Part shown: positions 41,249-56,407 of the stretch, one piece after another
How positions within the stretch are numbered: position 1 is the stretch's first letter
Layout of the letters: every line of letters starts with the position of its first letter
Assembly (NCBI GenBank): GCA_943330745.2
Contig: CALQIX020000002.1
Location: 26,909-90,908 of the forward strand
Reading direction: 5' to 3'
Origin: Lishizhenia tianjinensis
GTDB lineage: Bacteria > Bacteroidota > Bacteroidia > Flavobacteriales_D > Crocinitomicaceae
DNA length: 64,000 nucleotides
Position numbers and translations under genes: made by a program
The notes under the pieces: generated by a model
What the model saw: only the letters and a program-made list of their open reading frames with translations
The model's database searches: none
Told to the model about the DNA's origin: nothing

Positions 41249-41341
41249 AATAAATCATTAAAACTTGCATTTTTTACGAGTTTTAATGATTGTAACAATT
41301 CTAATCCAACAAATATCTGCGTTAAGAAAATTACAGAAAAC

Positions 41342-41401
41342 AAAAATTCCCCACCGTTTTGAACGCGATGATAGAAGATACATAAATTCATTATTCATTT
41401 G
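41342..41401 (-). repeat. copy B of the 3'-end repeat family (hybrid: the half at lower plus-strand coordinates resembles copies C/D, the other half resembles copy A)
   Basis: aaaaattccccaccgttttgaacgcgatga, followed by tagaagatacataaattcattattcattt. It lies 24 nt downstream of the YhcG-remnant stop. Confidence 0.7.
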
Positions 41402-41424: not shown

Positions 41425-41605
41425 TCATTTTTTACCAAACAACTCAATTTCCAATTCTGAAACAGTTGGCATATCTTCTTTTAATTTTTCGCTTTTTTTA
41501 ACCAACAACAATAGGATATTGCCGTTCAACAAATGCAAAACCCTTACCCAATTCAAGCAAAAATTTTGTGATATTTTCAGTCAGGTTCTTTTCTATTCCT
41601 GTAAT
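41425..41605 (-). pseudogene. internally deleted, N-terminally truncated remnant of a YhcG/DUF1016-type PDDEXK nuclease gene
   Basis: The minus strand of 41605-41501 reads ITGIEKNLTENITKFLLELGKGFAFVERQYPIVVG, bounded by stops, and matches the DUF1016 LLELGxGFAFVGRQ motif. A different frame at 41472-41428 reads MPTVSELEIELFGKK*, resembling the family C-terminus. The PDDEXK core between them is missing. Confidence 0.55.
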
Positions 41606-42521: not shown

Positions 42522-42548
42522 TGTTGTTGATTTGAAATTAGAACATAG

Positions 42549-44744
42549 TTATAACCCAAGTTCTTTTCGTATCACTTCAAAAGCACTAGGATTTACACCG
42601 CCGCTTACAAATTCTCCAAAATCATTAAGAATAATTGTTTTGACGTTCATATTCAACTCAGGGGAAATTGCATCTAAAGGAAACTTCAAATAAAGATCTT
42701 TAGCCTTTTTCAAGTCTCCGTTTAACAAATAAGCATGTGCCAAATTCAATGTGATCATGATGTTGTCATTCGATACTTTCGTTGCCTCTTTTAAAAATTT
42801 CGCAGCAACCTGATACTCAAAATTCAATAAACAACGCCAACCCAATGAATTCAAAATTGATATTGTTTTCTCCCCTTTTATGTAAGCATTGTAATCATTT
42901 AAAAACCTTGTTTCACCGTTATTGTAAGAGATAATGAAAAGATCCAGAGCAGTATTATCAACTGTATTCGAATTTTGATTCAAAACAGGAATCAAATCAT
43001 TCGAATTCGTCAATAATTTATATTTCCCTATGAAGTCTGCTCTGTTTGTCCTTAATGACAATTTGATTATTCTCAGTTCATCAAGTATACTTGACAACTG
43101 AATTTTATCCGCAGCCCAGATTGAATCGTTCATTTTATTCAATTGAAGCATATAATCGTTTTGATAATAAGCTTTTAGATTGGTCTTTTCCATTGCCTGA
43201 TTGTACCAATCTTTCAAAACTTTATCATTAAGACCTGACATGAGGAAATCATTACAAATACTTTTAAAATAAGCAGATGCTAAAATTAAATCATGCTTAA
43301 TTTCAAATACTAGAAAACTCTCTCTATCAAAATTGGCAACATTTTCTAAATAAACTTTTGGTTTTTCATTTATGTAAAACCAAGGTGTTGAATTCGGTAC
43401 GATTTTACTCAAGTTCAAAATATTATTTTTATTCTTTAATAAATAGTTGGCACGTGCGTCAGTATTAACCATTTCCAAAGCCACGCTATATTCTAATGCG
43501 TCAAAATTAAACTTATCTTTTTTTGGATCGTATGAACTAAAAATCCAAAATTGAGTGTTGTTAAAAAGTTGTGATAAAAGTGAATTCTTAAAATCTAGTG
43601 AACTTACCAAATATGCCAAAGCCAAAGCATTGCTCGAATTGGCCATTTCTTCGCTATACATTGCGTTTTGATCAATTAGCATGTTTTTCACCTCAACCGG
43701 AACCATCCAAGAACTAAAAATAGAATTATCTACGTAATCCGAAAATACAACATTTGAGTACTTAAATCCTTCGTTTGAAATATCAATTTTCAACTGATTC
43801 ATTTGCACAGCAAACTCCATTAATTTAGGTTCAAGAGCTAATTTATGACTTACCATATTGTAATTATACATAGGATTGCTATTCGATAAATCTGTGAACT
43901 CCTTTGAAATCATTAAATGCCAATTGGCATATGCACATTTCAAATATGCAATAATGGATCGACTTCTGTTCAGCAAGAAAACTTCATAACAGACAGGCCG
44001 CAGTCTTTTGAACATTTGAAGTTCTACATTGAGAAAGGATGATGGAAGGAATGCATCTATTACACGAGCATCCCAACGTTTGAATGGCTTTGAATTCACT
44101 TCAGTTGAAATCTCTTCAAAATATCGAATTCCCTCTGTCAGCAGTGCATTTTTCTTTTCTTGAATGCTATTCATTTGTTTCAGAAAATCCATTTCTGGTA
44201 TACCTCTAAAGTTGTTCATCTTGTTGAATTCTACATTCAACACATCTAATCTTTCATAGAAATTGATCAAAAAAAGCTCGTAAACACATTGAAATTCAGT
44301 TCGGTCATTGTAACCGTCATGTTCATCAGTGAAGACTAAATCATGAATTGAAGCTTTTATTGTGTTGAATGACTTTAATGTCGTTTCACCCTTCGAGATC
44401 ATTTTCTTATAATACTCTTGACGTTCTTCCACCGTTTGTGAATATGACACAAAAGGACAAGTCCCTATAATACAGGTCAACATGACAATCTTAAAAAGAT
44501 TTTTCATTACTGAAAAATGACCAAACTTTTCTTTAACTTGACTAAAAATGATGTCCATTCCTTCTTTAATTTTAATGAGAAACTTACTCTTGAAATTGAT
44601 GATTGATTCCATATTTACAGTACTATTTAGGGAGATTAAAAAATTAATTTTGCTTTCTTTACCATTTTTCAGGATTAATCCAACTTCAAATTTTAACTGT
44701 TCTTCTGGTGATAATTTCTGCATAATCGTTTTTTCGAGAAGCAA
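42549..44744 (-). CDS. hypothetical protein with internal signal/anchor sequence and C-terminal TPR-like repeats
   Basis: The hydrophobic stretch MKNLFKIVMLTCIIGTCPFVSYSQ begins at residue 80 (ATG at 44507). The real product is therefore either a 652-aa secreted protein or a type-II anchored protein starting at ATG 44723 or TTG 44744. The C-terminus (LNLAHAYLLNGDLKKAKDLYLKF) is TPR-like. Confidence 0.6.
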   Translation of the reverse strand: MLLEKTIMQKLSPEEQLKFEVGLILKNGKESKINFLISLNSTVNMESIINFKSKFLIKIKEGMDIIFSQVKEKFGHFSVMKNLFKIVMLTCIIGTCPFVSYSQTVEERQEYYKKMISKGETTLKSFNTIKASIHDLVFTDEHDGYNDRTEFQCVYELFLINFYERLDVLNVEFNKMNNFRGIPEMDFLKQMNSIQEKKNALLTEGIRYFEEISTEVNSKPFKRWDARVIDAFLPSSFLNVELQMFKRLRPVCYEVFLLNRSRSIIAYLKCAYANWHLMISKEFTDLSNSNPMYNYNMVSHKLALEPKLMEFAVQMNQLKIDISNEGFKYSNVVFSDYVDNSIFSSWMVPVEVKNMLIDQNAMYSEEMANSSNALALAYLVSSLDFKNSLLSQLFNNTQFWIFSSYDPKKDKFNFDALEYSVALEMVNTDARANYLLKNKNNILNLSKIVPNSTPWFYINEKPKVYLENVANFDRESFLVFEIKHDLILASAYFKSICNDFLMSGLNDKVLKDWYNQAMEKTNLKAYYQNDYMLQLNKMNDSIWAADKIQLSSILDELRIIKLSLRTNRADFIGKYKLLTNSNDLIPVLNQNSNTVDNTALDLFIISYNNGETRFLNDYNAYIKGEKTISILNSLGWRCLLNFEYQVAAKFLKEATKVSNDNIMITLNLAHAYLLNGDLKKAKDLYLKFPLDAISPELNMNVKTIILNDFGEFVSGGVNPSAFEVIRKELGL

Positions 44745-44873
44745 ATAAACAAATAAAAATCACCCCTATTAACGGCAACTAACTGCAACTAACCTGGGTG
44801 CTAAAAAGTAATCGTATTTTCGGGTGTAAATTCTTTTCTTTGTTTCATAAAGGATAAAGAACCTCTTAAAAAG

Positions 44874-44916
44874 AAAAATTCCCCCACCGTTTTGAACGCG
44901 ATGAGGGAATGCAGCG
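44874..44916 (-). repeat. copy C of the 3'-end repeat family; terminator-like hairpin on the minus strand
   Basis: 37 nt (44880-44916) are identical to 50108-50144. The minus-strand RNA folds CCCUCAUCG-(9 nt)-CGGUGGGGG (7 Watson-Crick and 2 G-U pairs), followed by AAUUUUUCUUUUU. It lies 12 nt past the stop of the 1099-aa gene. Confidence 0.65.
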
Positions 44917-44928
44917 ATTTGTTAATTT

Positions 44929-47900
44929 TTATTGCTTGATGAGCTTCGTTACAGCTGAACTATTTTCAATTGAAAGGTAGTATGCGCCACGAGCAACATG
45001 TTGCAAATCAATTTGCTCTTGGGTGGAAGTAATTTTTCCATCACGAATCGTTCTACCCGAAAAATCACGAATTGAATACCTTTTTCCAACTAGTTCTAAT
45101 GAAACCTCAAACGTAATGTTGCTGTTTGTTGGATTGGGGTATACAAGAATGTTTGTGTTCACGACTTCTATCACGCCCGATACGCCATTGTTTACGATGT
45201 TTGAACGTGATACTCCGTAATTCACTATTTTAGTTGGATCACAATTTACTGGATTTACGACCTCAATTTGGTAATACAAAGGGCCTGTTGGAGGAGATAA
45301 ATCTGTATATGAGTTCAAATTGCTTTGAATGGTTGTGAGTAAACTGATATTTGATGGATCTGTTCCTCTGTAAATATTGTAGCTACCAAAGGTTAAACCT
45401 TCGTAATGACTCCAAATTAAGTTCCATGCTCCGCCAATTCCTTGGTTGATAGTTAAGTGAATGGTTTTGTGGAAATCACCAACATTAGTTTCAACACCAC
45501 ACGTGTCTTTCGCTGAAATTTTATAGCGATAAGCCTGTACAGCAGGGTTTGAATTTACATCAAGGAAAACTGCCAATTGGTTATAATCCGTTGCGCCAAT
45601 CTTTGTGTAAATATTGGAAACGTTGGTTTCTTTGTACACATAGAAGGAATCAATTCCTAATGTTAAAGGTTTCTCCCACACCACTCGATTTTCATTGGTT
45701 AAGGAATCTACTCCCACGATACAGACTTGCGGAGCTGCCATAAAGGAAGCATTTACAGCAAATGGATTGGAAGTTTGTGAACAGCCATTGGAATTGGTTA
45801 CCGAAACAGAATAATTTCCAGATTGTGAAACCACCAACGAACTTGCCGTTGAACCGGTATTCCATAAATAGCTACTGAAACCACTAGGAGCAGTTAAAGT
45901 CATTGAACCTCCCGAACATGGCGTAATGGTTCCACTAGAGGAAATAGTTGGAACTGATGGAAGTGGATTAAACGTTACCGAAATACCAGCCGAAGTTACA
46001 GGACAATTGTTTTGATAAATGGTAACGGTATATGAACCACTTTGAGTTGGGTAAAATGAACTAGTTGTTGCTCCGCTTACTGGAATTCCATTTCTGTTCC
46101 ATTGATAGGTGAATGATGGATTCGTGTTGCAACTTAACAACAGTGAATCTCCTACACAGCCGCTCAAAGGACCAGTTTGATTAAGCGTTGCGGTATGTGT
46201 GCAAGTAACTCCGCCTATCACAAAAATTAGATCATTGAAGGTTTGTGAACTCGAACAGCCCGTTGTTAGGTTATCAGCAACAACGGTGACATCGGCATAG
46301 CCGTTTTGCGTATAAATGTGACTCAAGAATGGCGCATTGGATTGCTGAGAGGTTCCATCTCCGAAATACCATGTAAAATTATAGTTGCTCAAGTTTTGTG
46401 TTTGATTGGCAAAAGCTACATTGAGTGGGGCATTACCAAAAGCTGGGTTGGGGGTGATGGAGATGTTGTCGTTGGTATTTACATTTAAAGTAAGCGTTAC
46501 AACACTATCACAACCAAATTGATTTGTCAATGTTTGCGAATATTGACCTGGTTGAGTGTATTGTTGCCCGTTCCACGTGTAAGTGTCGCCGTTGCAGATA
46601 GTTGCGGAAAAAGAGGAAACAGAATTTAAGATGGTTAAATTTATTTCTAATATTACACTATCACAGTAATCTTGATAAATTGGATGATTATAAAATAACG
46701 CTTCATAATAGATTCCTGTTTCTGAATAGGATTGATTAGTTGGAGAAATATAGGGACTGCAAGAACTAACATTCATTATTTCAGTTGGAACAGTAGGTAA
46801 TTGTACATTTATATTTAGATAAACACTATCACAACCAGAAATATCGTCAATAACTTCAAAATAACTACCTGGACCATACGTCACTCCAGAAGGTGAAACA
46901 TAAGGAAAACACCAAGATGCAGCAGTATTTACTGTGTCAGAATATGGTGCACATTGCTTGAGTCTAATAATATTATTTGAATTATTTGAATTGAAAGTTG
47001 AAAACGCTCCTCCGGCAATTATTTTTCCATCTGACTGCAAACCTAATGAGTTTACCGGACCATTAAAAGCAAGGCCTGGATTAAACGTATTATCAATTGT
47101 CCCATCAGTATTAATACAAATAAAATTTTGATGATTATAGTACATATATAATGGATAATCTCCGGTCTGAATTGCCCAGAGACCCACACCTCCCATGCAA
47201 CCATTATAAGAAGGGTCATTGCAATTATCATTCATCCATGAACCTCCTATTATAAATTTTCCATTAGGCAAAGCAACAACTGATTGAGAATCTCCGTTAA
47301 TTTGAACATTGCTTGCAAATGCATTGTCGACTGTTCCATCATTTTGATTTAATAGATATGCAATAGGGTAAGGCCCGCAACAGCCTAACGCTCCGACCAC
47401 TATAATTTTGTTGTTAGTAAGTATTTTAAAATCATATACGCCTCCCCATGCCAAGTTAATAGGAGCAGAAAATGAATTATCAATTGTTCCATTTGAATTA
47501 AGTCTAATAATATCAGAAACAGCTATATTATTGAAATAATTTATAAAACCTGAAACAATTATTTTGCCATCACTCTGCACTGATATGCAATAAACATCTC
47601 CCACACTTACAGTTCCAGCGCTTGGATTTATTTGCATCATTATACCAGTGCCGGGATTAAAGGTTGTATCTAAAGACCCATCAGGATTTAGTCTCAAAAT
47701 AGAGTTGCGAAACGCACCATTATATGCCGAAAAGTAACCACCAACTAGTATTTTTCCATCGTTTTGGACACAAATTGCCCCAATGTTACAAAATACATTT
47801 TGATATACATTCTCACTAAATCCCGTTCCAATATTAAATGTTAAATCAATAGTACCATTAGTATTAAGTCTGACAAGGCGATTTCTTGTAAAACCATTAA

Positions 47901-48228
47901 ATTCAGTAAAACGGCCACCAACTAAAATTTTTCCATCATTTTGAACTGCAATGGCATCAACTGTACCATTAAATCCACTTCCAATATCAAATGAATTATC
48001 CAGAGTTCCATGTGAATTTAACTTTACTAAGCGATTAGCCGTTACACCATTATAAGTTGTAAAATCTCCTCCAATAATTAATTGGTTATTAGGTAATACA
48101 ACAATACCACTTCGCCCTGTTGCCCCGTTTAATCCAGCTCCGTTTATAAAAGATAAATCTTTATAAACATTTTGAGAAAAAATAGAAAATGAAACAAAAA
48201 AATTAAGTATAAACAGAATTACTTTCAT
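44929..48228 (-). CDS. large T9SS-secreted protein: N-terminal delta-60/DUF5122-type beta-propeller repeats, Cys-containing modules, PKD/Ig-like domains, T9SS C-terminal sorting domain
   Basis: Signal peptide. At least 6 repeats of G-[TS]-[LIV]-D-x-[ST]-F...DGKI[LI]VGG. CDSV-containing modules, a PKD-like FGDGT, and C-terminal VYPNPTNSNITFEV...YYLSIENSSAVTKLIKQ. Confidence 0.85.
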   Translation of the reverse strand: MKVILFILNFFVSFSIFSQNVYKDLSFINGAGLNGATGRSGIVVLPNNQLIIGGDFTTYNGVTANRLVKLNSHGTLDNSFDIGSGFNGTVDAIAVQNDGKILVGGRFTEFNGFTRNRLVRLNTNGTIDLTFNIGTGFSENVYQNVFCNIGAICVQNDGKILVGGYFSAYNGAFRNSILRLNPDGSLDTTFNPGTGIMMQINPSAGTVSVGDVYCISVQSDGKIIVSGFINYFNNIAVSDIIRLNSNGTIDNSFSAPINLAWGGVYDFKILTNNKIIVVGALGCCGPYPIAYLLNQNDGTVDNAFASNVQINGDSQSVVALPNGKFIIGGSWMNDNCNDPSYNGCMGGVGLWAIQTGDYPLYMYYNHQNFICINTDGTIDNTFNPGLAFNGPVNSLGLQSDGKIIAGGAFSTFNSNNSNNIIRLKQCAPYSDTVNTAASWCFPYVSPSGVTYGPGSYFEVIDDISGCDSVYLNINVQLPTVPTEIMNVSSCSPYISPTNQSYSETGIYYEALFYNHPIYQDYCDSVILEINLTILNSVSSFSATICNGDTYTWNGQQYTQPGQYSQTLTNQFGCDSVVTLTLNVNTNDNISITPNPAFGNAPLNVAFANQTQNLSNYNFTWYFGDGTSQQSNAPFLSHIYTQNGYADVTVVADNLTTGCSSSQTFNDLIFVIGGVTCTHTATLNQTGPLSGCVGDSLLLSCNTNPSFTYQWNRNGIPVSGATTSSFYPTQSGSYTVTIYQNNCPVTSAGISVTFNPLPSVPTISSSGTITPCSGGSMTLTAPSGFSSYLWNTGSTASSLVVSQSGNYSVSVTNSNGCSQTSNPFAVNASFMAAPQVCIVGVDSLTNENRVVWEKPLTLGIDSFYVYKETNVSNIYTKIGATDYNQLAVFLDVNSNPAVQAYRYKISAKDTCGVETNVGDFHKTIHLTINQGIGGAWNLIWSHYEGLTFGSYNIYRGTDPSNISLLTTIQSNLNSYTDLSPPTGPLYYQIEVVNPVNCDPTKIVNYGVSRSNIVNNGVSGVIEVVNTNILVYPNPTNSNITFEVSLELVGKRYSIRDFSGRTIRDGKITSTQEQIDLQHVARGAYYLSIENSSAVTKLIKQ

Positions 48229-48242
48229 AAAAATATTATTAG

Positions 48243-48785
48243 TTAAAAATTAAACAGCCCTGAAAGATTCCTCGGATTAGTTTTATTGATTAATTGTATT
48301 TGCGGAAAACGTTTCTTGAACAGAAATATCAAATCGTTTTCTAATCGATGTATCGGTTTTTCAGAATTTTGAGAGTTGCTATTTTTTATAAGCACCTCTT
48401 TAGAAACTGCGAATAAAACCACTTTTGACTGTAAAAAAACTTGTTGGTTATTTATAAAATAATCTTTGTTAACCTCTTGATGACCGAGCCCTTTGAGGAC
48501 AGCATTAAATCCGCCCCATCTTCTCCCATCAATATGTTTAGCAATTCGTTCCAGCAAAGTGCAACTACTCGCTTTGCCTACATAATATTTTCCATCTGTA
48601 AAACGAAAGATATACATACCATTTTCGTGAAGTTCATCGTCAAATGTGATTCCTCTTGTGTAGTCTAAAAAATTAAAATCTTTTAAAACTACACTGTAAT
48701 CACTTTCCAAATGATTGATTATACGATCAACCAATGTAATATCTGCAACGTTTTGCCAACTAGGTAAAAAAAGACTTTTCTTCAT
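48243..48785 (-). CDS. GIY-YIG nuclease-superfamily domain protein (~180 aa)
   Basis: GMYIFRFTDGKYYVGKASSCTLLERIAKH gives GIY-x9-YVG-x(n)-R-x3-H spacing, and a later Glu context sits in HRLENDLIFLF. The ATG at 48785 lies downstream of a -7 box, whereas the track start at 48824 lies upstream of it. There is no signal peptide. Confidence 0.65.
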   Translation of the reverse strand: MKKSLFLPSWQNVADITLVDRIINHLESDYSVVLKDFNFLDYTRGITFDDELHENGMYIFRFTDGKYYVGKASSCTLLERIAKHIDGRRWGGFNAVLKGLGHQEVNKDYFINNQQVFLQSKVVLFAVSKEVLIKNSNSQNSEKPIHRLENDLIFLFKKRFPQIQLINKTNPRNLSGLFNF

Positions 48786-48801
48786 TTTCAAAATTTCACT
48801 C

Positions 48802-48809
48802 CAAATATA
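48802..48809 (-). promoter_or_regulatory. candidate -7 box for the GIY-YIG / 1099-aa protein unit
   Basis: Plus strand caaatata equals minus-strand tatatttg, 17 nt upstream of the ATG at 48785. Confidence 0.4.
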
Positions 48810-48828
48810 CCCCCCTCCAACCACTCTT

Positions 48829-48871
48829 CTTGCTTCACTCTTGCTTCACTTTATGCTTCGTTAGTGCTTCG
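48829..48871. promoter_or_regulatory. four helically phased TGCTTC boxes in the divergent intergenic region
   Basis: TGCTTC occurs at 48831, 48842, 48854 and 48865 (spacing 11/12/11 nt). The first two lie in a perfect tandem cttgcttcact x2. The last two lie in ta(g)tgcttcg x2. Confidence 0.45.
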
Positions 48872-48896
48872 ATTGATATATCTTCTATTTTTGTTT

Positions 48897-50003
48897 ATGC
48901 TAAATGCACTCAAAAGTGAATTGGAAAAGAAAGTGGGGTTTGCGCTCGATTCGTTTAAGAACTGTCGGCGCTTAGAAAACCTACTGCAACACAAAGGGCT
49001 CTACATTTCCTACAGCAGTTTGGCGCGCATGTTTTCGGTTGGCAACAAAACCACAGAACCGAGACTTTCCACACTCAACGAATTGAGTGTTTTCTTAGGG
49101 TATCAATCGTATGAGCATTTTAACCAATTCAATGAGAATTCAGCCGAAAAGTTGGAAGCCTATACACGCAAGGTCTTGGAAATGAAATCGGAACTGTTTT
49201 TCGGTAATCGCCTCAAAGGACTGGAACTATTTATTGATATCCGTAAAAAGTTTGGGTCATTATCTGATTTGCTTTCGCAGGAACTTGCCCTGCATCTTTT
49301 TAATAAACAGGATCTACCAAAAAACGAACTGGAACACCTCGTGGCTAAGGGTATTACTGAAGTGAATTTCATGGATTTTTTCATCTACGAAGACGACCCC
49401 TTCGGACATTACGAATGGTTTATTCAACATGCTTCTGGAGCTCAAAAACAAAGTCAAGATTTTCAACACTTCAAGAATCTATTTTCACAGCGAAAAGAAT
49501 TATTGAAAGGCAAGACCACAGTTGAAAAAGCTTTGCCAATCCAAAACATCAATCAATCTGTTCATCTGTATGCTAGAATATTGGAAATCGAAGTCTTGCA
49601 AATGGCTGCAAACCAACCTAAAAACTTGTTGGAGTTTTACCAGGAGCGCCTCGATCAAACTATCAGCTTATTGAAAAATCGCCACGAATACGATAAAATA
49701 ATAGTTCTTGGCAGGCTGTTTCGCGCTGCTTGTCATACAGGAATCGATAAAAAAATACTTCTGGACAATGAAACCAAGCAATTCTGCGTGGAGGTAATCA
49801 ATTCAAATGCCCTAGAACTTGAATTTCAAGCGCCCATTTACGCTGTCCTGAAAAATGATCCGAAATTAAATTTAAGCTTAGCTTTCTTGCACAACAATTA
49901 CTGGAAAAACGCACAATTTGAGTCTGAAATGTTAATAGCCAGAGCATTGGGCCTGAAAAAAGTATATGAAACGTATAAGAAAGGAGTGTTAAAGAAAACC
50001 TAA
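48897..50003 (+). CDS. XRE-like HTH protein with ~300-aa helical C-terminal domain, paralog 1 (3' end frameshifted relative to paralog 2)
   Basis: The N-terminus KVGFALDSFKNC...ISYSSLARMFSVGNKTTEPRLSTLNELSVFLGYQSYEHF follows the XRE HTH pattern and aligns to 52453-53667. The ATG at 48897 is preferred to the GTG at 48864, which lies inside the TGCTTC boxes. Confidence 0.6.
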   Translation: MLNALKSELEKKVGFALDSFKNCRRLENLLQHKGLYISYSSLARMFSVGNKTTEPRLSTLNELSVFLGYQSYEHFNQFNENSAEKLEAYTRKVLEMKSELFFGNRLKGLELFIDIRKKFGSLSDLLSQELALHLFNKQDLPKNELEHLVAKGITEVNFMDFFIYEDDPFGHYEWFIQHASGAQKQSQDFQHFKNLFSQRKELLKGKTTVEKALPIQNINQSVHLYARILEIEVLQMAANQPKNLLEFYQERLDQTISLLKNRHEYDKIIVLGRLFRAACHTGIDKKILLDNETKQFCVEVINSNALELEFQAPIYAVLKNDPKLNLSLAFLHNNYWKNAQFESEMLIARALGLKKVYETYKKGVLKKT

Positions 50004-50053
50004 ATTCATTTGCCCAAAAAACCGGAAATAGTTGGGTGCTGAATGTGTTGAAA
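49995..50053 (+). repeat. right-end patch, copy 1 (near-identical to 53606-53664)
   Basis: 50007-50053 is 46/47 identical to 53618-53664 (catttgcccaaaaaacSggaaatagttgggtgctgaatgtgttgaaa). Here it lies just after the stop codon and out of frame. Confidence 0.85.
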
Positions 50054-50102
50054 ATAAGTTGTTACACACTATTTCTTAATCTAATAACCTTCCGTTTAGC
50101 GT

Positions 50103-50144
50103 AAAAATCCCCCACCGTTTTGAACGCGATGAGGGAATGCAGCG
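50103..50144 (-). repeat. copy D of the 3'-end repeat family; terminator-like hairpin on the minus strand
   Basis: The 37-nt core is identical to copy C. On the minus strand the hairpin is followed by AUUUUUAC. It lies 18 nt past the stop of the 699-aa gene. Confidence 0.65.
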
Positions 50145-50162
50145 CAAATATTTTATGGTTTA

Positions 50163-52262
50163 TTATTTTATTGTTCGGACAGCTCTGAAAGCTGATCTAG
50201 TTACACCCCCCACCCAGAAGAGATTATTAACCCAAATTGGCTGTTTACCAGGACTTACAAATTGTAAACATTCATAATATGTATATGTTTCTTCTCTGTC
50301 TTGTGGGGCTCTACCTAGACCAACAAGAACATTTTCCTTTACAATAGTTTTAGAAAATGTTTCACTAGTAAAATACAAATTGTAGTTTTTTCCATCATGA
50401 AATGTAGATTTATTTGAAACACAAAGAGAATCATAAATTAATTTTAATTCATCTTTAGTGGGCAATCTCCATCCTTCTCCCAATTTAGTACAAGTATAGT
50501 TAAGAGCTTCAAAATTAAACTTATCTTCAACATATACAGGAAAATCAAATTCAGCTACTTCTATGTTACCCAAAATAAATGGTTTGCCAATTATTTCTTC
50601 TGCGAACTTTTCACCAAAATAAGAAGGGTGCGACCGCTTATCGATGACTTTGCCATCCATTCTGTAATATAAGTGCATCAACACATCTTGTACCCATTGC
50701 GAGCCCTTGTAATATCCTTGTTCGTGGTATTCGAAATAATCACCAAAAAAATGATCTTGTGCCTTAGAAAGAGTATCTATATTTCCTTTAGACTTTAGAC
50801 TACCAGATGGATAATACAACTCAAATGTGCCTTGATTCTTATTGTTTTTTATTGAATTCATTTGTTTTTTTCTTCCAAGAGAATCGTATAAATCTCTTTT
50901 TGTCAATGAACCGTAATTGTAAGTTTCAATATTTTTTTTATCTGCATTTCTTCGAGATTTTTCAATTTCAGTTGCATATTCTTCGTTGAGTATTTCTTTT
51001 GGTTCTTTCGTTGTATGATTCCAGTATAAAATTTCATCTTTGTGTTTTTTCCCTTTCAAATATGTTGTTTCTCGCTCCAAATTACCTGATTCATAATACG
51101 CTATTTCAAATCCATTCTTCAAATCATTGAAATAGGTTGTTTCTAGCTTTTTATAACCGTTTTCGTAAAAAAGTGTCTCCTTTTTATTATGTGCCTCATC
51201 ATCTCTTTTTATGGTTTTCCCCGTATTATGATCATAATTTGACTCAAGATTTAAAACATCATAAAAACTCGTAGTTTGAGTCAAAGTACCCAACTCATTA
51301 AATAGAGATAATTTACTTTTTTTATTTTCTAGAAACTCTTCCACTTTAGAAATCTTGCCATTCTCATAAAATATTGAATCAATACTTCTATTTTCATTTG
51401 GTAATTTATATTCTACTCGGTTAATTTTACCGTCCTGGTAGCTTGTTTTTCTATTTTCTGTAACAACACTCGACAGCAAGTTATTTATATAAAATCGCTT
51501 TTCTCCATGTATTTCCTCTAAGAGTTTGTTCTCGTTTTGGTCAAAATGCGTTATCGATAATGGAACATATATTTTTATCATTTTCTTTTTTCCATTTTTA
51601 TGGAACGCTGTATATGGGCCAACTATTCGCTTTGGATCACTTCCACTACCTTGATAATTTTCAATTTCAGCAATAATACCTACATGTACTTGTTTTGATT
51701 TTTCTCGTTCAATGGTTGTTGCAAGAACCTGTAGATTGCCTAATTTTTTTTGTTGAATTTCTTTTTTGTCTTTATGATTCTTTATTAAAGACTGACCTTT
51801 ATCCCATAGTGTTTTTGAATCATCTTTCAAATTTCCGTCATTCGCTTTTGCTTGTATTTTTTCCCATTTTTTTACCCCGCCAGCATCTTCTAATATGAAA
51901 AGTGACAACTGATTATTACTTTCAACTGTATCCTTAGTGGCATGAGAGCATTCCTCATCGAGCAAGGATTTTTCGACCAATAATTTAGTTAATAACAGGG
52001 TGTCCTGAAACTTTTCTGTACTAAAAGCTGAATCCAAATAAAATGTTTTATAAAAACCAAATAAAACACCATTTTTCACTTCAAAAATTGATTTGATTTG
52101 TTGATTATTAAATCGACTGATTACTAAGCCGTTATATGGCTTTTCATTTTTATAATGCCATCCATCATTATCAATTTTTAATTCCTTTTCTTCTGTTATG
52201 AGCTGTGAAGTAGCTGTGAGATGAATAAAAACTAAAACAAGAAAAATAAAAAGTGTTTTCAT
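50163..52262 (-). CDS. secreted protein with MORN-variant (YwqK-like) repeats and C-terminal DUF1566/Lcl-C-like domain
   Basis: Signal peptide. Repeated G-x-x-x-x-[FY]-[YH]-x-N-G-type motifs throughout. The C-terminus CTKLGEGWRLPTKDELKLIY ... AFRAVRTIK matches the DUF1566 pattern. Confidence 0.65.
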   Translation of the reverse strand: MKTLFIFLVLVFIHLTATSQLITEEKELKIDNDGWHYKNEKPYNGLVISRFNNQQIKSIFEVKNGVLFGFYKTFYLDSAFSTEKFQDTLLLTKLLVEKSLLDEECSHATKDTVESNNQLSLFILEDAGGVKKWEKIQAKANDGNLKDDSKTLWDKGQSLIKNHKDKKEIQQKKLGNLQVLATTIEREKSKQVHVGIIAEIENYQGSGSDPKRIVGPYTAFHKNGKKKMIKIYVPLSITHFDQNENKLLEEIHGEKRFYINNLLSSVVTENRKTSYQDGKINRVEYKLPNENRSIDSIFYENGKISKVEEFLENKKSKLSLFNELGTLTQTTSFYDVLNLESNYDHNTGKTIKRDDEAHNKKETLFYENGYKKLETTYFNDLKNGFEIAYYESGNLERETTYLKGKKHKDEILYWNHTTKEPKEILNEEYATEIEKSRRNADKKNIETYNYGSLTKRDLYDSLGRKKQMNSIKNNKNQGTFELYYPSGSLKSKGNIDTLSKAQDHFFGDYFEYHEQGYYKGSQWVQDVLMHLYYRMDGKVIDKRSHPSYFGEKFAEEIIGKPFILGNIEVAEFDFPVYVEDKFNFEALNYTCTKLGEGWRLPTKDELKLIYDSLCVSNKSTFHDGKNYNLYFTSETFSKTIVKENVLVGLGRAPQDREETYTYYECLQFVSPGKQPIWVNNLFWVGGVTRSAFRAVRTIK

Positions 52263-52389
52263 TATAGGATTTGATTTTTAATAACTAATTCATTACTCTG
52301 TTATTTAACAAAAAGTCTATATATTAAGATGTAATTATTTTATTTCAAATCTACTTAGTTATCATAAAATCTTGCTTTGACTTTCATTT

Positions 52390-52406
52390 CAACTTGTTCC
52401 AAGTTG
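52390..52406. promoter_or_regulatory. 17-bp palindrome upstream of HTH paralog 2 (candidate operator)
   Basis: caacttg-ttc-caagttg has perfect 7-bp arms, 47 nt upstream of the ATG at 52453. TTGYTY boxes occur at 52372, 52394 and 52404. Confidence 0.3.
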
Positions 52407-52452
52407 CTCTACGCTGAAAAACTGTTAACTTTAAATACCTTTTTTTGTTTGT

Positions 52453-53667
52453 ATGGGCACAGATGCTGGTCTTGATAAGAATATTCAGAAGTTAAAGAAA
52501 AACCTTGAGTTCAAGTTGGGGTTTGCTGTCTTGACTTACCATGACTGTAAAAAAGCATCCGCGCGGCTGAAACTGGACAAGATTTCACTTTCACCGCTTA
52601 CAATTGGTCGTTTATTTTCTGTTTTCAAAGACACAAAACGCCCCTACAATAGTACCTTAGATTTACTCACTCGTTTTTTGGGCTACGAATCTTTTTCTTC
52701 GTTTTGCATAGACACTTCCGATTTGGTAGGTACTCGCTTGTACAATCCCTCGTTTGAAATCGTAAATGGATCTTTTCAAGCCTTGGAACTAGCCTGCCAG
52801 CAAGCAGATTGGAAAATGGTAAAAACAATCTTGGAAGAAATTAATCCCCACAAAGACGACTATGAATTCCCCATGTTTTTGGGAAATATTGTTAGAAACC
52901 ACCCAGAGCGCAACGATTTTATTAAAGCACTTATGGATGTAGAAGTAGGAAGAGTTTATTTCTTTGAACGCTTCGTAGATGAAGACGATCCAGACGGCTA
53001 TTTTTCGCATGCGCTTACTTCGTTTTGTTCGAATTACCGAAGAGATATTGGCAGTCAAATTTTTAAGGTCTGTTTTCAATTGGCTAAGCAGATTTATCAA
53101 GAAAATAAATTTAACGTATCTGAATGGAGGACCTTTGAACAGATGGGACTGAATTTGAAAGAGTTACACTTTCATCAAATTTCGCGCTGGTTTGAATTAA
53201 AGTTACTCTTTGCTTCACGAGAAATAAATCCTTTACAAAAAACCCAAAAAATTATTGCCGAATTGTTTGAAATTTTACCTCATTACAGCAATGGTGATCA
53301 ATGTTGGATTCTGGCAAGACCATTGAAAGCCCTGGCACACATGGGTTTATTGAATGAAGTACTGAGCGTTTCAGAAATAAAAGAGCGTGTTTTTAACGTG
53401 TTTATTGCTATGGATGGCCGCGTTTCTTCAATTGGAGATTTGATAGTTCAATTTGTTTGCCATGCCTATGTTGATACACAACAAACAGTGAGTAATCCAA
53501 AATCTATTTCTGCATCACATTTCAATGAAACATTTAGCCGAATTGCCATTGAATCTGCCACGTCGTTATTGTATGTTCAGGAACCTACAAGAAACCGTAT
53601 TGAAAAAAACCTCAAACCATTTGCCCAAAAAACGGGAAATAGTTGGGTGCTGAATGTGTTGAAATAA
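52453..53667 (+). CDS. XRE-like HTH protein with helical C-terminal domain, paralog 2
   Basis: KLGFAVLTYHDC...SLSPLTIGRLFSVFKDTKRPYNSTLDLLTRFLGYESFSSF aligns to paralog 1. Shares the EDDPxGxY motif. The intact C-terminal tail is KPFAQKTGNSWVLNVLK. Confidence 0.6.
   Translation: MGTDAGLDKNIQKLKKNLEFKLGFAVLTYHDCKKASARLKLDKISLSPLTIGRLFSVFKDTKRPYNSTLDLLTRFLGYESFSSFCIDTSDLVGTRLYNPSFEIVNGSFQALELACQQADWKMVKTILEEINPHKDDYEFPMFLGNIVRNHPERNDFIKALMDVEVGRVYFFERFVDEDDPDGYFSHALTSFCSNYRRDIGSQIFKVCFQLAKQIYQENKFNVSEWRTFEQMGLNLKELHFHQISRWFELKLLFASREINPLQKTQKIIAELFEILPHYSNGDQCWILARPLKALAHMGLLNEVLSVSEIKERVFNVFIAMDGRVSSIGDLIVQFVCHAYVDTQQTVSNPKSISASHFNETFSRIAIESATSLLYVQEPTRNRIEKNLKPFAQKTGNSWVLNVLK
53606..53664 (+). 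repeat. right-end patch, copy 2 (encodes the last ~16 codons of paralog 2)
   Basis: See 49995-50053. In this copy the patch is in frame and ends at the stop codon. Confidence 0.85.
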
Positions 53668-53681
53668 AAAGGAGTGATCTG

Positions 53682-54998
53682 TTATTTAATGGAATCTGAT
53701 ACTTGTTTTCCATTACTATCACCAGATTTATTTTCTTTTTTGGCTTTTGTATTAGCCGGGTTTTTAGTACTTCCACTATCCGTTATTGCGTGTTTGATGA
53801 TTCGTTGTCGTTGCGTATGGGAAAGTGTATTGGCAGAAAAAACATTGTGGAAGAAGATCACATCGTCTATGCCTTCTGATTTGATGAGGTTCAATAATCC
53901 TTTATTGAAATAACGGTAGTCAACCACATGTACGGTCTCGTAATTGTTTACCAAAAAAGTAGCAAACGGATTCCCAAATGAGTTTTTAATCAACACCACA
54001 CTTCGACCATTTTTGACAGATGTTTTAATTTTCATGTGTGGTATATCACCGCCTAAAAATACGCCATATGAATTTCCTCCAGCTGCATATTCTGCAAATA
54101 TTTTTGTTTCTGTTGTCACCGGTGGAATGAAGTATTCAACGGAATCTTTATTGTTTTTGATGGATTCATCTTTGGTTAAATTATACAGCGTCCCCAAAAA
54201 ATTCTTTTTCACTTTTTTAGTCATTTTTGACAAGGGAGTGGGTTTGAGTCCTGCTGCCTGACAAAAAGCTGTATACGCATAATACGCTCCTAATCCCGTC
54301 CAGTGGTGGTCTGATGCAAAATAGATATATTCATCTTGATGTTGCACCAAGGCTTCTTTGGCGCGCACATTGATTACTCCAGATTCAGAAAAAGAATAGG
54401 CGTCATCGATATTCGCAAATTCTTTATTCCGTAAATAGTCATATTCTTTCACAAAGACAAAGGAGCTACCGGTTGGCACTACACAATTGAAAACGCGCAC
54501 TTCGGAAGGGAGTAATTTGCGGTATTCATTGACCACCTCGGTATAGCTTTTCACCGAAGACTTGTTCCCTCCAAACACCTGAAACGCACGCCCACCAATG
54601 ATTAATAATCCATGTGATGCGGACGACTCAGCATTTACTAAATAGTCAACATCGCGCGCTGCCTTATCTAAATCAATTTTCTTTTCGTCAATTTTTCGCG
54701 CTCCTTCTTTAACAATTAGTCGAGCATTGTTGGCAGCCTTCATTCCTTTTCCTTCATTCATTAAAAAAGCCAATTCAACCAATGAACTTCTAAACGGAAA
54801 ATGATCATCGATATACTTTTGGTATTGATGCATCAACGAGCCATCTAATAATCCAGCAAGGTGTATGCCAGGCCAAGTAGTAAGTTTTCGCTTTTCAGAT
54901 TCAGAAATTTCCTTTTTTTCTGAAAAGACAAACAACACGGATCCACCGATTAATGTACCAGAAAAGGCGATTGCATGTATGATTTTAAGTGCTTTCAT
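53682..54998 (-). CDS. DHHW-family protein (AlgJ/AlgX-like SGNH-fold O-acyltransferase partner)
   Basis: N-terminal membrane anchor and the signature FASDHHWT. 1-nt overlap with the upstream MBOAT gene. Confidence 0.8.
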   Translation of the reverse strand: MKALKIIHAIAFSGTLIGGSVLFVFSEKKEISESEKRKLTTWPGIHLAGLLDGSLMHQYQKYIDDHFPFRSSLVELAFLMNEGKGMKAANNARLIVKEGARKIDEKKIDLDKAARDVDYLVNAESSASHGLLIIGGRAFQVFGGNKSSVKSYTEVVNEYRKLLPSEVRVFNCVVPTGSSFVFVKEYDYLRNKEFANIDDAYSFSESGVINVRAKEALVQHQDEYIYFASDHHWTGLGAYYAYTAFCQAAGLKPTPLSKMTKKVKKNFLGTLYNLTKDESIKNNKDSVEYFIPPVTTETKIFAEYAAGGNSYGVFLGGDIPHMKIKTSVKNGRSVVLIKNSFGNPFATFLVNNYETVHVVDYRYFNKGLLNLIKSEGIDDVIFFHNVFSANTLSHTQRQRIIKHAITDSGSTKNPANTKAKKENKSGDSNGKQVSDSIK

Positions 54999-56407
54999 TA
55001 AAAACGGAAATATAAAAATGGATTGTAGGTGCTACCCACCAAAAACGAAGTGCAAATTAACAACACACCAATGTGAAGGATGATTTTTCCCGAAAGGAGA
55101 ACAGGATGTGTTGATAGGGAGGTTAATTTTTGATTCACAAACCCGAACTCATTCCACGGAATGCAAAACATAATGACCAAGCCAAACCAGAAGATGTTTT
55201 GTTTTAAATCAAAGGAAAAAGACACGGACTCATTGGGTCCAAAATTCACTAATGCCATACAGAATTCACCAAATTTGGAAAGATCTTCAAAATAGAACAA
55301 AGACCATCCAAAGACCACTAAAATTAAAGTTATTGTATAACGAAATATAGATGGTACCATATCATATAATTTTAACAAAAATGCTTTTTCCGCAAACATC
55401 AACAAGGCAAAATACAATCCCCACAACATGTAATTCCAGCTGGCTCCATGCCACATTCCCGTAAGTGTCCAAACAATTAATATATTTAAATACATTCTGC
55501 CAGCTCCTTTTTTGTTTCCTCCTAATGGGATATATACATAGTCGCGGAAAAACGTTGACAAAGAGATATGCCACCTGCGCCAAAAATCGGTTATTGAATT
55601 GGCTGCATATGGGTTTTTGAAGTTTTCATCGTAGTGAAACCCGAACATGCGTCCCAGCCCAATTGCCATGTCGGAATAGCCAGAAAAATCAAAATAAATT
55701 TGAACGGCGAACAGTGTTATACCAAACCAAGCGGTTACACTTGTCAACGAATCAAATTGATTAATTAAATAACTATCTACCAGGGCCCCAGCGGCATTGG
55801 CAATCACAATTTTTTTGAAAAGTCCCAAGCTGAAACGCCCAATGCCAGAAGAAAAATCGTCCCAATGAAATTTCCGACCATTTATTTCATCAGCAATGGT
55901 TTTGTAGCGTACGATTGGCCCGGCCACCAACTGGTGATACAAGCTCACAAAAAGTAAAAAGTTCATCGGGTTTCGTTGTGCTTTGACGTCGCCCCTGTAC
56001 ACATCCACCGTATAGGAAATAGTTTGAAAGGTGTAGAATGAAATGCCAATAGGTAGTGTTACCGTTGGGCGATCAAACGGAAGGCTAATAATGGCAGCTA
56101 TATTATCATAAATGAAGCCGCTATACTTGAAGGCGATCAATAAACCCAAATTCACTGCAATGGAAAAAACGACTACCCATTTCGCCTTTGCTTTGTTGTT
56201 TAATCGCTCAATCCAAATCCCGTTTCCATAATCGAAAAGGGCAGAAAATAAGAGCAAAACAATCCAAATAGGTTCACCCCAAGCATAAAAGAAGAAGGAA
56301 AATAAGGTTAAGAGGATGTTTCTGTACATCAAATTCCCTGATACATAATACAATATCAGATTAATCGGTAGAAAGAAATATAAAAAAACGAGACTAGAAA
56401 AAACCAT
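54998..56407 (-). CDS. MBOAT-family membrane O-acyltransferase (AlgI/DltB-like)
   Basis: Polytopic, with the signature FWRRWHISLSTFFRDYVYIPLGGN. Confidence 0.9.
   Translation of the reverse strand: MVFSSLVFLYFFLPINLILYYVSGNLMYRNILLTLFSFFFYAWGEPIWIVLLLFSALFDYGNGIWIERLNNKAKAKWVVVFSIAVNLGLLIAFKYSGFIYDNIAAIISLPFDRPTVTLPIGISFYTFQTISYTVDVYRGDVKAQRNPMNFLLFVSLYHQLVAGPIVRYKTIADEINGRKFHWDDFSSGIGRFSLGLFKKIVIANAAGALVDSYLINQFDSLTSVTAWFGITLFAVQIYFDFSGYSDMAIGLGRMFGFHYDENFKNPYAANSITDFWRRWHISLSTFFRDYVYIPLGGNKKGAGRMYLNILIVWTLTGMWHGASWNYMLWGLYFALLMFAEKAFLLKLYDMVPSIFRYTITLILVVFGWSLFYFEDLSKFGEFCMALVNFGPNESVSFSFDLKQNIFWFGLVIMFCIPWNEFGFVNQKLTSLSTHPVLLSGKIILHIGVLLICTSFLVGSTYNPFLYFRF

Follow-up and report, generated by a model that had tools for sequence, protein, structure and literature searches.

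A modular flexible genomic island with a recurrent terminator-like element in a freshwater Crocinitomicaceae-type flavobacterium

Two adjacent gene modules with the same layout, near-identical ends and divergent interiors raise the question of whether such ends are sites at which whole modules are exchanged. Analysis of the window, meaning the entire 64-kb stretch studied here, confirmed the repeats that a first-pass annotation had reported. A 37-nt core occurs in exactly two identical copies (44880-44916 and 50108-50144; shuffles expect 0) and widens to 42 nt at 41/42 identity (44875-44916 and 50103-50144), and a right-end patch is identical at 46 of 47 positions (50007-50053 and 53618-53664), its similarity widening to 68 nt at 90% (49986-50053 and 53597-53664). 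The interiors are indeed divergent, with a module DNA alignment near random level until the last ~70 nt, unrelated 1099-aa and 699-aa cargo proteins (best E 6.2) and two helical proteins, HTH1 and HTH2, that are true paralogues at 23% identity (E 2e-14). Both modules belong to a variable island of ~14 kb (39.9-53.7 kb) bounded by LysM/SGNH and DHHW genes, which qualifies as a true flexible genomic island with a modular build. Its host is a freshwater Crocinitomicaceae-type flavobacterium, and the island contains three modules, of which the first-pass annotation had missed module 0:

40001-41248, minus strand: g415, a 415-aa AAA_14 + DUF4143 protein (Pfam; PADLOC PDC-S01, E 4e-146), a candidate anti-phage defence gene in the left part of the island
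41664-44744, minus strand: cargo of module 0 (285-aa and 731-aa proteins), whose regulator is gone except for a ~90-nt remnant
44874-50053: module 1, DUF5122 cargo, small protein and HTH1
50103-53664: module 2, 699-aa cargo and HTH2
53682-54998, minus strand: DHHW-family gene (Pfam; syntenic in L010), the conserved right border of the island

The left-end repeat, hereafter T, had been described as terminator-like, and its minus strand forms a hairpin (stem 10-12 bp, loop 9 nt) that runs into UUUUU, directly after the cargo stop codons. In the 64-kb window, a covariance model run with filters off found four copies, each of them on the minus strand and within 39.9-50.2 kb, that is, in the island; on this count T does not behave as a generic genome-wide terminator:

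39949-39998, minus strand: T0, degenerate copy directly 3' of g415 (TTCCCTCATTG..GGTGGGG; covariance model 23 bits, E 0.007)
41339-41388, minus strand: T', third strong copy (blastn-short; model match 62.5 bits)
44872-44921, minus strand: T1, behind the 1099-aa cargo gene (fold with 12-bp stem, 9-nt loop and U-tract, preceded by the conserved CGCTGCA; model match 73.8 bits)
50100-50149, minus strand: T2, behind the 699-aa cargo gene (fold; model match 67.1 bits)

T' and T0 were absent from the first-pass annotation. The 3' arm of T' carries point mutations (GGG to TAG) in comparison with L015 11206-11255, and T' would have terminated a YhcG-like gene, now decayed. Fold energies are -16.8 (T1) and -18.9 kcal/mol, with z scores of -2.95 (T1) and -3.45, and T lies 13 nt (T1, 1099-aa gene), 19 nt (T2, 699-aa gene) or 3 nt (T0, g415) after the stop codon; in most related loci too, T lies just past a stop codon in gene orientation. 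A simple terminator scan, which allows loops of up to 8 nt, missed T only because of this limit. No Rfam family matches T, which we regard as the predicted intrinsic terminator of the minus-strand cargo genes, where transcription would end.

Third-codon positions of the neighbouring cargo gene reach just 48-73% identity where T itself keeps 95-100%, and none of 11 stem pairs shows a compensatory change, so that the sequence, and not the structure alone, is conserved. Also conserved are the 7 nt that adjoin the hairpin on its 5' side (CGCTGCA), for which a plain terminator has no need. Exact-match scans of the GTDB and JGI collections found T in 7 GTDB MAGs and ~20 JGI metagenome contigs, many of them from freshwater Crocinitomicaceae; the loci compared span up to 21 kb. 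Whether the repeats always bracket HTH-plus-secreted-protein units had been posed as a check, and they do not: T also stands behind several small ORFs and behind genes for an AAA_14/DUF4143 protein (PDC-S01) and a YhcG nuclease. The copies checked against flanking ORFs are all terminator-oriented to the gene ending alongside, save two (L018, L034), and single genes enclosed by two T copies include YhcG in L015, a 240-aa VanZ/cNMP gene in L018 and L034, and g415 in L022, L024 and L036.

T might be viewed as a small repeat that moves or copies itself, like REPs or MITEs, and was inserted independently behind many genes, with the modular appearance as a by-product. The same 42 nt do stand behind unrelated genes, their edges are sharp in ~10 unrelated contexts with no similarity beyond them, T is palindromic like REP elements, and its flanks fall into a CGCTGCA-type and an AATTTA-type. 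However, copies are few and clustered (all four in the window within 10 kb; 1-2 exact core matches per GTDB genome, always on one contig) and, with the two exceptions above, terminator-oriented. The flanks of 34 distinct copies have in common only an A-run, the complement of the U-tract, and CGCTGCA, without duplicated bases suggestive of a target site and without terminal inverted repeats beyond the hairpin, and no pair of empty and filled sites differing in T alone was found among the compared loci. We therefore consider independent insertion of T unlikely, and favor the reading in which modules closed by T are assembled by recombination.

The genes and intergenic features of modules 1 and 2 are as follows:

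44929-48228, minus strand: 1099-aa T9SS cargo (Pfam: DUF5122 beta-propeller repeats, PKD, Por_Secre_tail)
48243-48824, minus strand: 193-aa small partner of the DUF5122 cargo (GIY-YIG 20.2 bits, cutoff 22.6)
48831-48871: four phased TGCTTC(A/G) repeats, spacing 11, 12 and 11 nt, read from the sequence of the divergent intergenic region of module 1
48897-50003, plus strand: HTH1, all-helical putative regulator, intact, ~368-379 aa (42 homologues, 51-97% identity)
50007-50053, plus strand: orphan patch after HTH1, non-coding; the other frame reads (ENLNS)FAQKTGNSWVLNVLK
50054-50102: 49-nt spacer between the modules, which moves with the patch and is 95% identical in L015 and L023
50163-52262, minus strand: 699-aa cargo of module 2
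52390-52406: palindrome CAACTTG-TTC-CAAGTTG in the divergent intergenic region of module 2
52453-53667, plus strand: HTH2, all-helical putative regulator, 404 aa (61 homologues, 30-98% identity)

The earlier domain calls held in part. DUF5122, PKD and Por_Secre_tail are solid in the 1099-aa protein (PF18962, E 1.4e-9, 38.5 bits, above cutoff), whereas the GIY-YIG match of its partner and the MORN_2 and Lcl_C/DUF1566 matches of the 699-aa protein stay under Pfam cutoffs. No Por_Secre_tail-type sorting domain was detected in the 699-aa protein, which has orthologues at 67-90% aa identity in L008, L009, L012 and L032, and the 193-aa protein is kept with a DUF5122 cargo in L018, L026 and L038 (62-75% aa). 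In module 0, the 285-aa protein matches no Pfam family and the 731-aa protein shows weak, sub-threshold TPR matches.

The XRE-HTH label given to HTH1 and HTH2 could not be confirmed, as neither has an HTH match in Pfam or NCBIfam, nor do 40 distant relatives; their first 100 residues have no Pfam match at a threshold as lax as E 10. Structure prediction bore out an all-helical architecture (AF2 pLDDT 87 for HTH2; an N-domain of 5 helices, pLDDT 83), with weak fold matches: the N-domain best resembles the HTH regulator EspR (E 2.0, TM 0.45), and the top Foldseek matches, RRNPP-type (ComR, Rgg, PrgX, Rap) and MalT-type regulators, are not significant (E 0.25 or worse, TM 0.3 or lower). Like these regulators, HTH1 and HTH2 appear to combine a small N-terminal helical, possibly HTH-like domain with a TPR-like solenoid at similar size, and their genes lie beside the gene or genes that they would control. 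Unlike them, they belong to the phylum Bacteroidota, have neither a Pfam HTH or TPR nor an identified peptide gene, and share invariant residues (EDD...H..R..E..R) that are not a feature of those families. Divergent pairing of a family member with a DUF5122/CTD cargo persists at 30% identity (L046). Gene arrangement and the weak fold resemblance suggest that the helical proteins are putative, probably DNA-binding regulators of the divergent cargo. The intergenic repeats noted earlier are present, and the phased TGCTTC(A/G) repeats of module 1 and the palindrome of module 2 may serve as their operators.

The right-end patch proved to be of another nature than T, contrary to the proposal that both module ends are recombination or regulatory sites. 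In HTH2, it forms the last 16 codons (53618-53664) and encodes a motif, ..NLxPFAQKTGNSWVLNxL, that 60 HTH2 homologues, with identities as low as 30%, conserve at their C-termini. HTH1-family proteins, with a natural C-terminus of ..KKGVLK(KT), stop ~25 residues before the patch-encoded C-terminus. In L038, HTH1 (aa 8-346) is fused to HTH2 (aa 342-404), and in L023 a real HTH2 3' end is followed by the same patch and spacer as in the window. The patch is thus the coding C-terminus of the HTH2 family, not an end site; behind HTH1 it is an orphan, namely the 3' piece of an HTH2-type gene, and out of frame.

The window contains further relics:

41428-41596, minus strand: YhcG/DUF1016-type nuclease pseudogene in two fragments, which tblastn aligns with aa 211-242 (90.6%) and aa 333-354 (81.8%) of the L015 YhcG protein
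44775-44862, plus strand: HTH0, remnant of an HTH2-like regulator gene of 412 aa, comprising its promoter region and ~7 initial codons (blastn matches at L015 18500-18605 and L037 4799-4887)

HTH0 has lost its start codon (ATG to ATA at 44847), carries a tandem 10-nt repeat, (G/T)GCAACTAAC, at 44774-44793, and is cut off against T1. In related loci, block 52334-52446 of the module 2 intergenic region is left as a relic (L031, L040), 3' stumps of old cargo genes adjoin T over ~32 (L012), 105 (L011), 195 (L015) or 228 nt (L037), about 32-266 nt overall, and HTH2 3'-end stumps measure 47-189 nt. The varied lengths point to homologous and illegitimate recombination and not to a dedicated cassette recombinase or to precise cassette excision.

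Comparison across related loci showed that the units behave as modules, with borders that coincide with the repeats, and that they occur alone, reversed or relocated. Window positions 40505-41371 are joined straight to 44869-46469 in L010, and 41245-41371 straight to 50103-53672 in L009. The left flank upstream of g415 has at least three different right-hand partners, joined through T, and the 699-aa cargo has four different left flanks. Module 2 stands alone in L009, L008 and L032, with homology from exactly 50103 to 53672-53677; module 1 lies in a quite different, unrelated neighbourhood in L018; an HTH2 module precedes an HTH1 module in L026 and L032; and L038 carries two near-identical tandem modules. 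Between the LysM/SGNH and DHHW genes, module number and order thus vary: L010 and L025, with flanks at 92-95% DNA identity, hold one module rather than three (in L010, between g415 and DHHW), and L010, L025 and L011, which share these flanks, lack the module 0 cargo between them. The 1099-aa gene is itself mosaic, its 3' 1.6 kb (to ~46470) being conserved at 78-90% in many relatives and its 5' part replaced, with a breakpoint recurring at 46469-46478. Defence candidates in the island or related loci comprise PDC-S01, YhcG, a KAP NTPase and GmrSD.

Synteny breaks that fall exactly at T could also be expected if T were the attachment site of a dedicated site-specific recombination, comparable to integron attC or neisserial dRS3, with modules as true cassettes and the recombinase elsewhere in the genome. 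The sharp T boundaries, which include the unpaired CGCTGCA beside the hairpin, the single genes flanked by T on both sides and the conservation of T above synonymous sites without covariation would all suit such a site. Yet neither the window ORFs scanned nor the related loci compared revealed an integrase, transposase or RAYT-like gene, many junctions are imprecise, with cargo and HTH2 stumps of varied length, and the modules have their own promoters and opposite-strand genes. Integron arrays do resemble the island in having variable cargo and a similar imperfect palindrome at the gene 3' end of each unit, mostly in one orientation. attC sites are ~55-140 nt long, with R''/L''/L'/R' boxes and extrahelical bases. 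T is shorter (42 nt), with a continuous near-perfect stem and neither this layout nor a GTTRRRY core, and the island has neither IntI integrase nor attI or Pc. Phage_integrase or another recombinase family was found neither among the island genes and 28 further window ORFs nor in the gene tables of related loci; the imprecise junctions and opposite-strand regulator genes likewise set the modules apart from integron cassettes. We thus hold a site-specific system to be improbable. An old tandem duplication of one module, its ends held by purifying selection on a terminator and a protein C-terminus, or by local gene conversion, without module exchange, is least credible: paralogous helical proteins of the same architecture, repeats lying in functionally constrained sequence and near-identical strains (L001-L005) that keep both modules unchanged agree with it, but the cargo genes are unrelated, HTH1 and HTH2 have their own orthologue families elsewhere, paired and ordered differently, the out-of-frame patch behind HTH1 is non-coding and so beyond protein-level selection, and the cross-genome mosaics, with one module instead of three in L010 and L025, already contradict it, as the first-pass annotation had also judged.

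Drawing on the repeats, terminator structure, mosaicism, relics and the patch's coding nature, all directly observed, we consider it most likely that modules are swapped, lost and re-ordered at T by ordinary recombination rather than by a new mobile-element system. The grammar that probably best explains the island as a whole reads T, cargo, divergent promoter, regulator, with minus-strand cargo mostly secreted or T9SS-dependent. Cargo genes would be driven from a divergent promoter shared with the plus-strand regulator gene, and the same ~42-nt T would close the far end of each module. Selection on its sequence would hold T nearly invariant, and 35-42 nt of identical DNA in direct orientation would therefore be present at every module border. 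Crossovers between T copies, whether these share a genome or one arrives with incoming DNA, could then delete, duplicate or exchange whole modules, by RecA-type recombination or slippage, we infer, rather than site-specifically; illegitimate joining, both of regulator paralogues to one another and within cargo genes, would account for the remaining rearrangements, and the joining of an HTH1 module to the 3' end of an HTH2-type gene would have left the patch relic. Recombination alone is insufficient to explain one T common to unrelated genes; either the cargo upstream of T must have been replaced repeatedly while T was retained, or T must have spread to some extent. Taken as a whole, we find this assembly of the island somewhat better than an even bet.

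In aquatic bacteria, flexible (metagenomic) genomic islands encode cell-surface and defence functions. As in these, the segment studied here varies between strains within conserved housekeeping flanks, its variants are exchanged by recombination, and secreted or surface proteins and candidate defence genes abound in it; it differs by its internal repeated module grammar, and, to our knowledge, such a grammar with one specific terminator per joint is undescribed for flexible islands. Two further element classes were considered and rejected: REP/BIME with RAYT, on copy number, which is high and dispersed there (4 T in 64 kb, 1-2 exact per GTDB genome), and MITEs, on terminal inverted repeats and target-site duplication (34 distinct T copies). 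Neisserial NIME (dRS3) and minimal mobile elements also have short palindromic intergenic repeats clustered beside surface-protein genes, alternative genes at one site between conserved flanks from strain to strain, and an exchanged unit without transposase. In genomes related to ours, different genes likewise occupy the same site between the same flanks with T at the junction, a functional analogy for which no homology is claimed. dRS3 repeats have been proposed to raise recombination with incoming DNA (PMC1797815). They are 20 bp long, form long non-coding arrays with hundreds of copies genome-wide and are a known phage integration site, whereas T is a predicted 42-nt terminator with few copies in one island, one closing each module, in another phylum and without sequence relationship; the ATTCCC...GGGAAT ends common to both are probably a coincidence. 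That T, with its invariant stem and conserved CGCTGCA leader, is more than a terminator, namely the recognition site of a dedicated recombination system that builds and reshuffles arrays of regulator-plus-secreted-protein and defence cassettes in Flavobacteriia, is a long shot; if true, it would give the phylum its first described system of an integron-like or dRS3-like kind.

The 37-nt identity between the left ends of the two tandem modules, which the first-pass annotation had seen by eye, was confirmed: the 37-mer occurs exactly twice in the window against no occurrence in 100 shuffles, and the match stretches to 42 nt with 41/42 identical positions (44875-44916 and 50103-50144). On the minus strand, this element (hereafter T) folds into a hairpin (10-12 bp stem, 9-nt loop) with five U after it, and lies 13 and 19 nt past the stop codons of the 1099-aa and 699-aa cargo genes, respectively. 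Given the hairpin, the U-tract, and the position just beyond stop codons, T has the anatomy of an intrinsic terminator, as predicted from sequence and fold. Rfam searches of the whole window at the gathering threshold and of both repeat regions at E values up to 10 yielded no meaningful match. Further copies were sought by short-word BLAST and with a covariance model built on 23 distinct copies, giving a total of four in the 64-kb window, all on the minus strand and within 39.9-50.2 kb. Two of these, T0 and T', were absent from the first-pass annotation.

39949-39998, minus strand: T0, degenerate copy directly past the AAA_14/DUF4143 gene (model match, 23 bits)
41339-41388, minus strand: T', copy at the left end of module 0 (model match, 62 bits)
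44872-44921, minus strand: T1, copy at the left end of module 1
50100-50149, minus strand: T2, copy at the left end of module 2

Beyond these four, the covariance model run with filters off detected no T copy in the 64 kb, and such clustering argues that T is not a generic genome-wide terminator. The possibility that T' (41342-41371) was truncated by an insertion was rejected, since the element is complete, carries point mutations and, with its own flank, is homologous to positions 11206-11351 of the related locus L015. T is 95-100% identical where third-codon positions of the neighbouring cargo gene are only 48-73% identical, and the 34 distinct copies compared have sharp edges, with an A-run, the hairpin, and then usually CGCTGCA on the 5' side of the transcript. 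No compensatory changes were seen in the stem, so that selection on structure is not demonstrable and the conserved feature is the sequence rather than merely the ability to pair. The hairpin starts with ATTCCC and ends with GGGAAT, as does the 20-bp neisserial dRS3 repeat with its 6-nt inverted termini (ATTCCC N8 GGGAAT; PMC1797815); with only 6 nt in common, this is probably a coincidence.

Synteny breaks were then read from DNA comparison of all related loci, drawn from other genomes and metagenomes, with the window. In L010 and L025, whose flanks are 92-95% identical to the window, 40505-41371 is joined directly to 44869-46469 and homology resumes at 52337-55381, leaving between the AAA gene and the DHHW gene at the right island border a single module in which HTH2, the helical protein of module 2, is paired with a DUF5122 cargo. 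L009 joins window positions 41245-41371 directly to 50103-53672, that is, module 2 alone, and in L008 and L032 module 2 (homology from 50103 to 53677) has a different left flank. The order of modules is reversed relative to the window in L032, where a DUF5122 module comes after module 2, and likewise in L026 (HTH2, T, cargo, small protein, HTH1). L015 has the same patch and spacer and a T copy after HTH1 (95%), and then a YhcG nuclease gene in place of the 699-aa cargo, while L018 holds module 1 among WYL, GmrSD, and caspase genes (amino acid identity to the window of 65% for the cargo, 62% for the small protein, and 75% for HTH1). The two near-identical tandem modules of L038 (together at 3518-9474), each made up of T, a 332-aa CTD cargo, a 192-aa protein, and HTH1, are explained either by a recent duplication in tandem or by an artefact of assembly. 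Overall, the left flank upstream of the AAA gene has three different right-hand partners and the 699-aa cargo four different left flanks. Module loss, swap, and reordering in these relatives break at T, in partial agreement with the cassette-like pattern first proposed from the window.

Traces of such exchanges also remain in the window. Positions 44775-44862 correspond by homology to a 412-aa HTH2-like gene of L015 and L037, covering its upstream region and initial seven codons; the ATG is mutated to ATA, and the remnant is cut off against T1. The 285-aa and 731-aa genes, T', and this remnant make up module 0, which has lost its regulator. Two fragments of a YhcG-like pseudogene adjoin T'; an AAA paralogue, considered for this remnant, was rejected. 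Elsewhere, the 3' ends of cargo genes survive next to T as stumps of about 32 nt (L012), 105 nt (L011), 195 nt (L015), and 228 nt (L037), and a stump of the HTH2 upstream block persists in L031 and L040. These variable, imprecise junctions point to general and illegitimate recombination rather than to a precise cassette recombinase. The minus-strand 1099-aa and 699-aa proteins are unrelated; among the domain calls for the cargo units, DUF5122, PKD, and the T9SS sorting domain of the 1099-aa protein are all solid, and the GIY-YIG, MORN_2, and Lcl_C calls fell below Pfam cutoffs. DUF5122 cargo genes are themselves mosaic: at a recurrent breakpoint (46469-46478), identity falls from 82-93% over the C-terminal ~520 residues to about 31-36% in the N-terminal propeller region. 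In at least seven related loci, cargo DNA homology runs from T1 to ~46470 at 78-90% and then ends, marking a recurrent intragenic exchange point.

The right-end patch (50007-50053 and 53618-53664) is present where it had been placed, with 46/47 identical positions, and stretches to 68 nt at 90% (49986-50053 and 53597-53664). Module interiors diverge as described, the plus-strand proteins HTH1 (379/368 aa) and HTH2 (404 aa) sharing 23% identity (E 2e-14) and their genes aligning at near random-level similarity until the last ~70 nt. The motif ..NLxPFAQKTGNSWVLNxL closes 60 HTH2 homologues, down to 30% identity, and the patch in module 2 is the best-conserved coding segment of the HTH2 gene. The HTH1 family stops ~25 residues earlier, at ..KKGVLK(KT), and since its 42 homologues share this end, HTH1 is intact and a frameshift with loss of the C-terminus was rejected. 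Just past the HTH1 stop codon, the patch starts in a different frame, in which its reading would be ENLNSFAQKTGNSWVLNVLK; it is a 3' fragment orphaned from an HTH2-type gene, not the recombination or regulatory end site suggested earlier. L023 has a genuine HTH2 3' end with the same spacer and a T copy behind it, and a second orphan patch there abuts the DHHW gene; the first HTH1 copy of L038 comprises codons 8-346 and then, out of frame, HTH2 codons 342-404 (the last 63). In L015, conservation of the patch and spacer (91-95%) is close to that of the block around them (48769-50137, HTH1 through T2; 93% DNA identity); both are passengers inherited neutrally, not a site singled out for conservation. 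Together, these three loci support a join between regulator paralogues.

The window derives from a freshwater metagenome-assembled flavobacterium, and contigs of near-identical strains show the same arrangement. Seven GTDB MAGs, assigned by label to Crocinitomicaceae, Lishizhenia, or Flavobacteriia, contain an exact 23-nt core of T, and a looser pattern matched 22 JGI metagenome contigs, with ~20 genuine copies. T had no match in IMG/VR and HTH2 none by tblastn against plasmid and phage collections, so that a phage or plasmid origin is unsupported. Flank classes were read by hand, automatic clustering of T flanks having been discarded as too lax because it merged distinct right flanks. T also lies 3' of the AAA gene (L022, L024, and L036), YhcG (L015), and several small ORFs, which contradicts the expectation that the 37-mer always brackets units of an HTH and a secreted protein; in L018 and L034, a plus-strand gene lies between two T copies.

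We propose that the island consists of self-contained modules in a row, with the same terminator closing each. Being near-invariant, T would give every module border a direct repeat of 35-42 identical nt, which should suffice for RecA-dependent exchange or replication slippage, and module deletions, duplications, and swaps would accordingly break at T; the patch identity would be the relic of a conserved coding end. Module recombination does not cover the terminator common to unrelated genes or the sequence-level conservation of CGCTGCA and the stem, which leaves room for two rivals. The first, that T is a small self-spreading repeat, would account for its presence behind unrelated genes, and we consider it unlikely. 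Less probable still is a recognition site for a so-far unnamed recombinase: conservation of CGCTGCA and the stem beyond pairing alone would fit, but the junctions lack the precision of a cassette recombinase product and no integrase or transposase, of which the first-pass annotation had also seen none, turned up in the genes of the island, in 28 further window ORFs, or in the related loci. Plain old duplication of one module, already disfavoured at first reading, is contradicted by the cross-genome mosaics.

The helical proteins had been named XRE-HTH proteins, a label that was not confirmed: no HTH family was detected in either, and neither matched Pfam, NCBIfam, PADLOC, or PHROGs. Their family profile recovers 2263 representative clusters at E 1e-3 or better. 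Forty distant members have no Pfam domain in common, one of them showing NACHT or other STAND-NTPase matches, and two long members (P0211 and P0213; 694 and 717 aa) match the profile only N-terminally. Besides this ~90-residue N-domain, P0211 has only a weak AAA_22 match, and the N-domain appears from sequence to be an independent, unannotated module. An AF2 model (pLDDT 87) is all-helical, with a five-helix N-domain and a solenoid. Foldseek similarities were all weak, with E 0.25-1 for ComR, MalT domain III, Rgg, and Rap and E 2 for EspR against the N-domain, and PDB-sequence profile searches with the regulator family and the N-domain gave chance-level matches only. Across 48 family members, some only ~20% identical to HTH2, twelve residues are invariant (S47, R53, T68, E177, D178, D179, F204, H241, R245, E248, R289, and A293). 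The EDD triad and H..R..E cluster inside the solenoid suggest a pocket for a ligand or for catalysis rather than a passive scaffold of repeats; a comparison by eye with tyrosine recombinase, HD-domain, and terpene-synthase-like motifs gave no fit.

Divergent pairing with a DUF5122/CTD cargo gene is still present at 30% identity (L046). The intergenic repeats seen in the first pass are real: module 1 has four TGCTTC(A/G) at 48831-48871, spaced 11, 12, and 11 nt apart, and module 2 a 7-3-7 palindrome, CAACTTG-TTC-CAAGTTG, upstream of HTH2 (52390-52406). A tandem 10-nt repeat, (G/T)GCAACTAAC twice, lies at 44774-44793 upstream of the deleted regulator gene, with TGCAACTTAC twice as its counterpart in L015 (~18520-18545) and L037 (~4810-4835). 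The CAACTT core common to the 10-nt repeat and the palindrome suggests a putative operator half-site used family-wide, and we infer that the helical proteins may regulate the divergent cargo genes through these repeats.

The AAA_14/DUF4143 protein (415 aa; 40001-41248, minus strand) matches the PADLOC candidate anti-phage family PDC-S01 (E 4e-146), the sole PADLOC or PHROGs match among the island regulators, the cargo proteins, and this protein itself. YhcG, KAP NTPase, GmrSD, caspase, and WYL genes also occur in related islands, so that the island serves as a defence island as well. Elsewhere in the window, a 365-aa protein (9313-10410, minus strand) combines a TseH-like domain of a type VI effector family (E 2e-38) with a C-terminal DUF6695 domain, in a genome otherwise showing T9SS features. 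A full-length aldehyde dehydrogenase gene (35177-36643, plus strand; 488 aa) is followed by a 290-aa ORF (36672-37544, plus strand) that matches only the N-terminal half of the family and may be a truncated duplicate.

The closest functional analogue of T-bordered modules is found in Neisseria, with its dRS3/NIME repeats and minimal mobile elements, where short palindromic repeats close to surface-protein genes have been put forward as promoting the exchange of adjacent genes (PMC1797815); flexible genomic islands of aquatic bacteria provide the general setting. Unlike an integron, the island has no IntI and no attC structure, and its modules have their own promoters. T copies are few and clustered in comparison with the REP/BIME family, and T lacks the TIR and TSD of a MITE. 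On present evidence, this is not a new kind of mobile element. What is newly defined is a previously unannotated 42-nt element absent from Rfam and an unannotated ~400-aa helical family that has no Pfam model and is consistently paired with T9SS cargo genes. Taken together, these results offer a nucleotide-resolution view of how a surface-protein and defence island is rebuilt in abundant, uncultured freshwater flavobacteria, with one conserved terminator as the common joint between self-regulated modules, and make T and the helical family usable markers for such islands and for testing how Bacteroidota generate cell-surface diversity.
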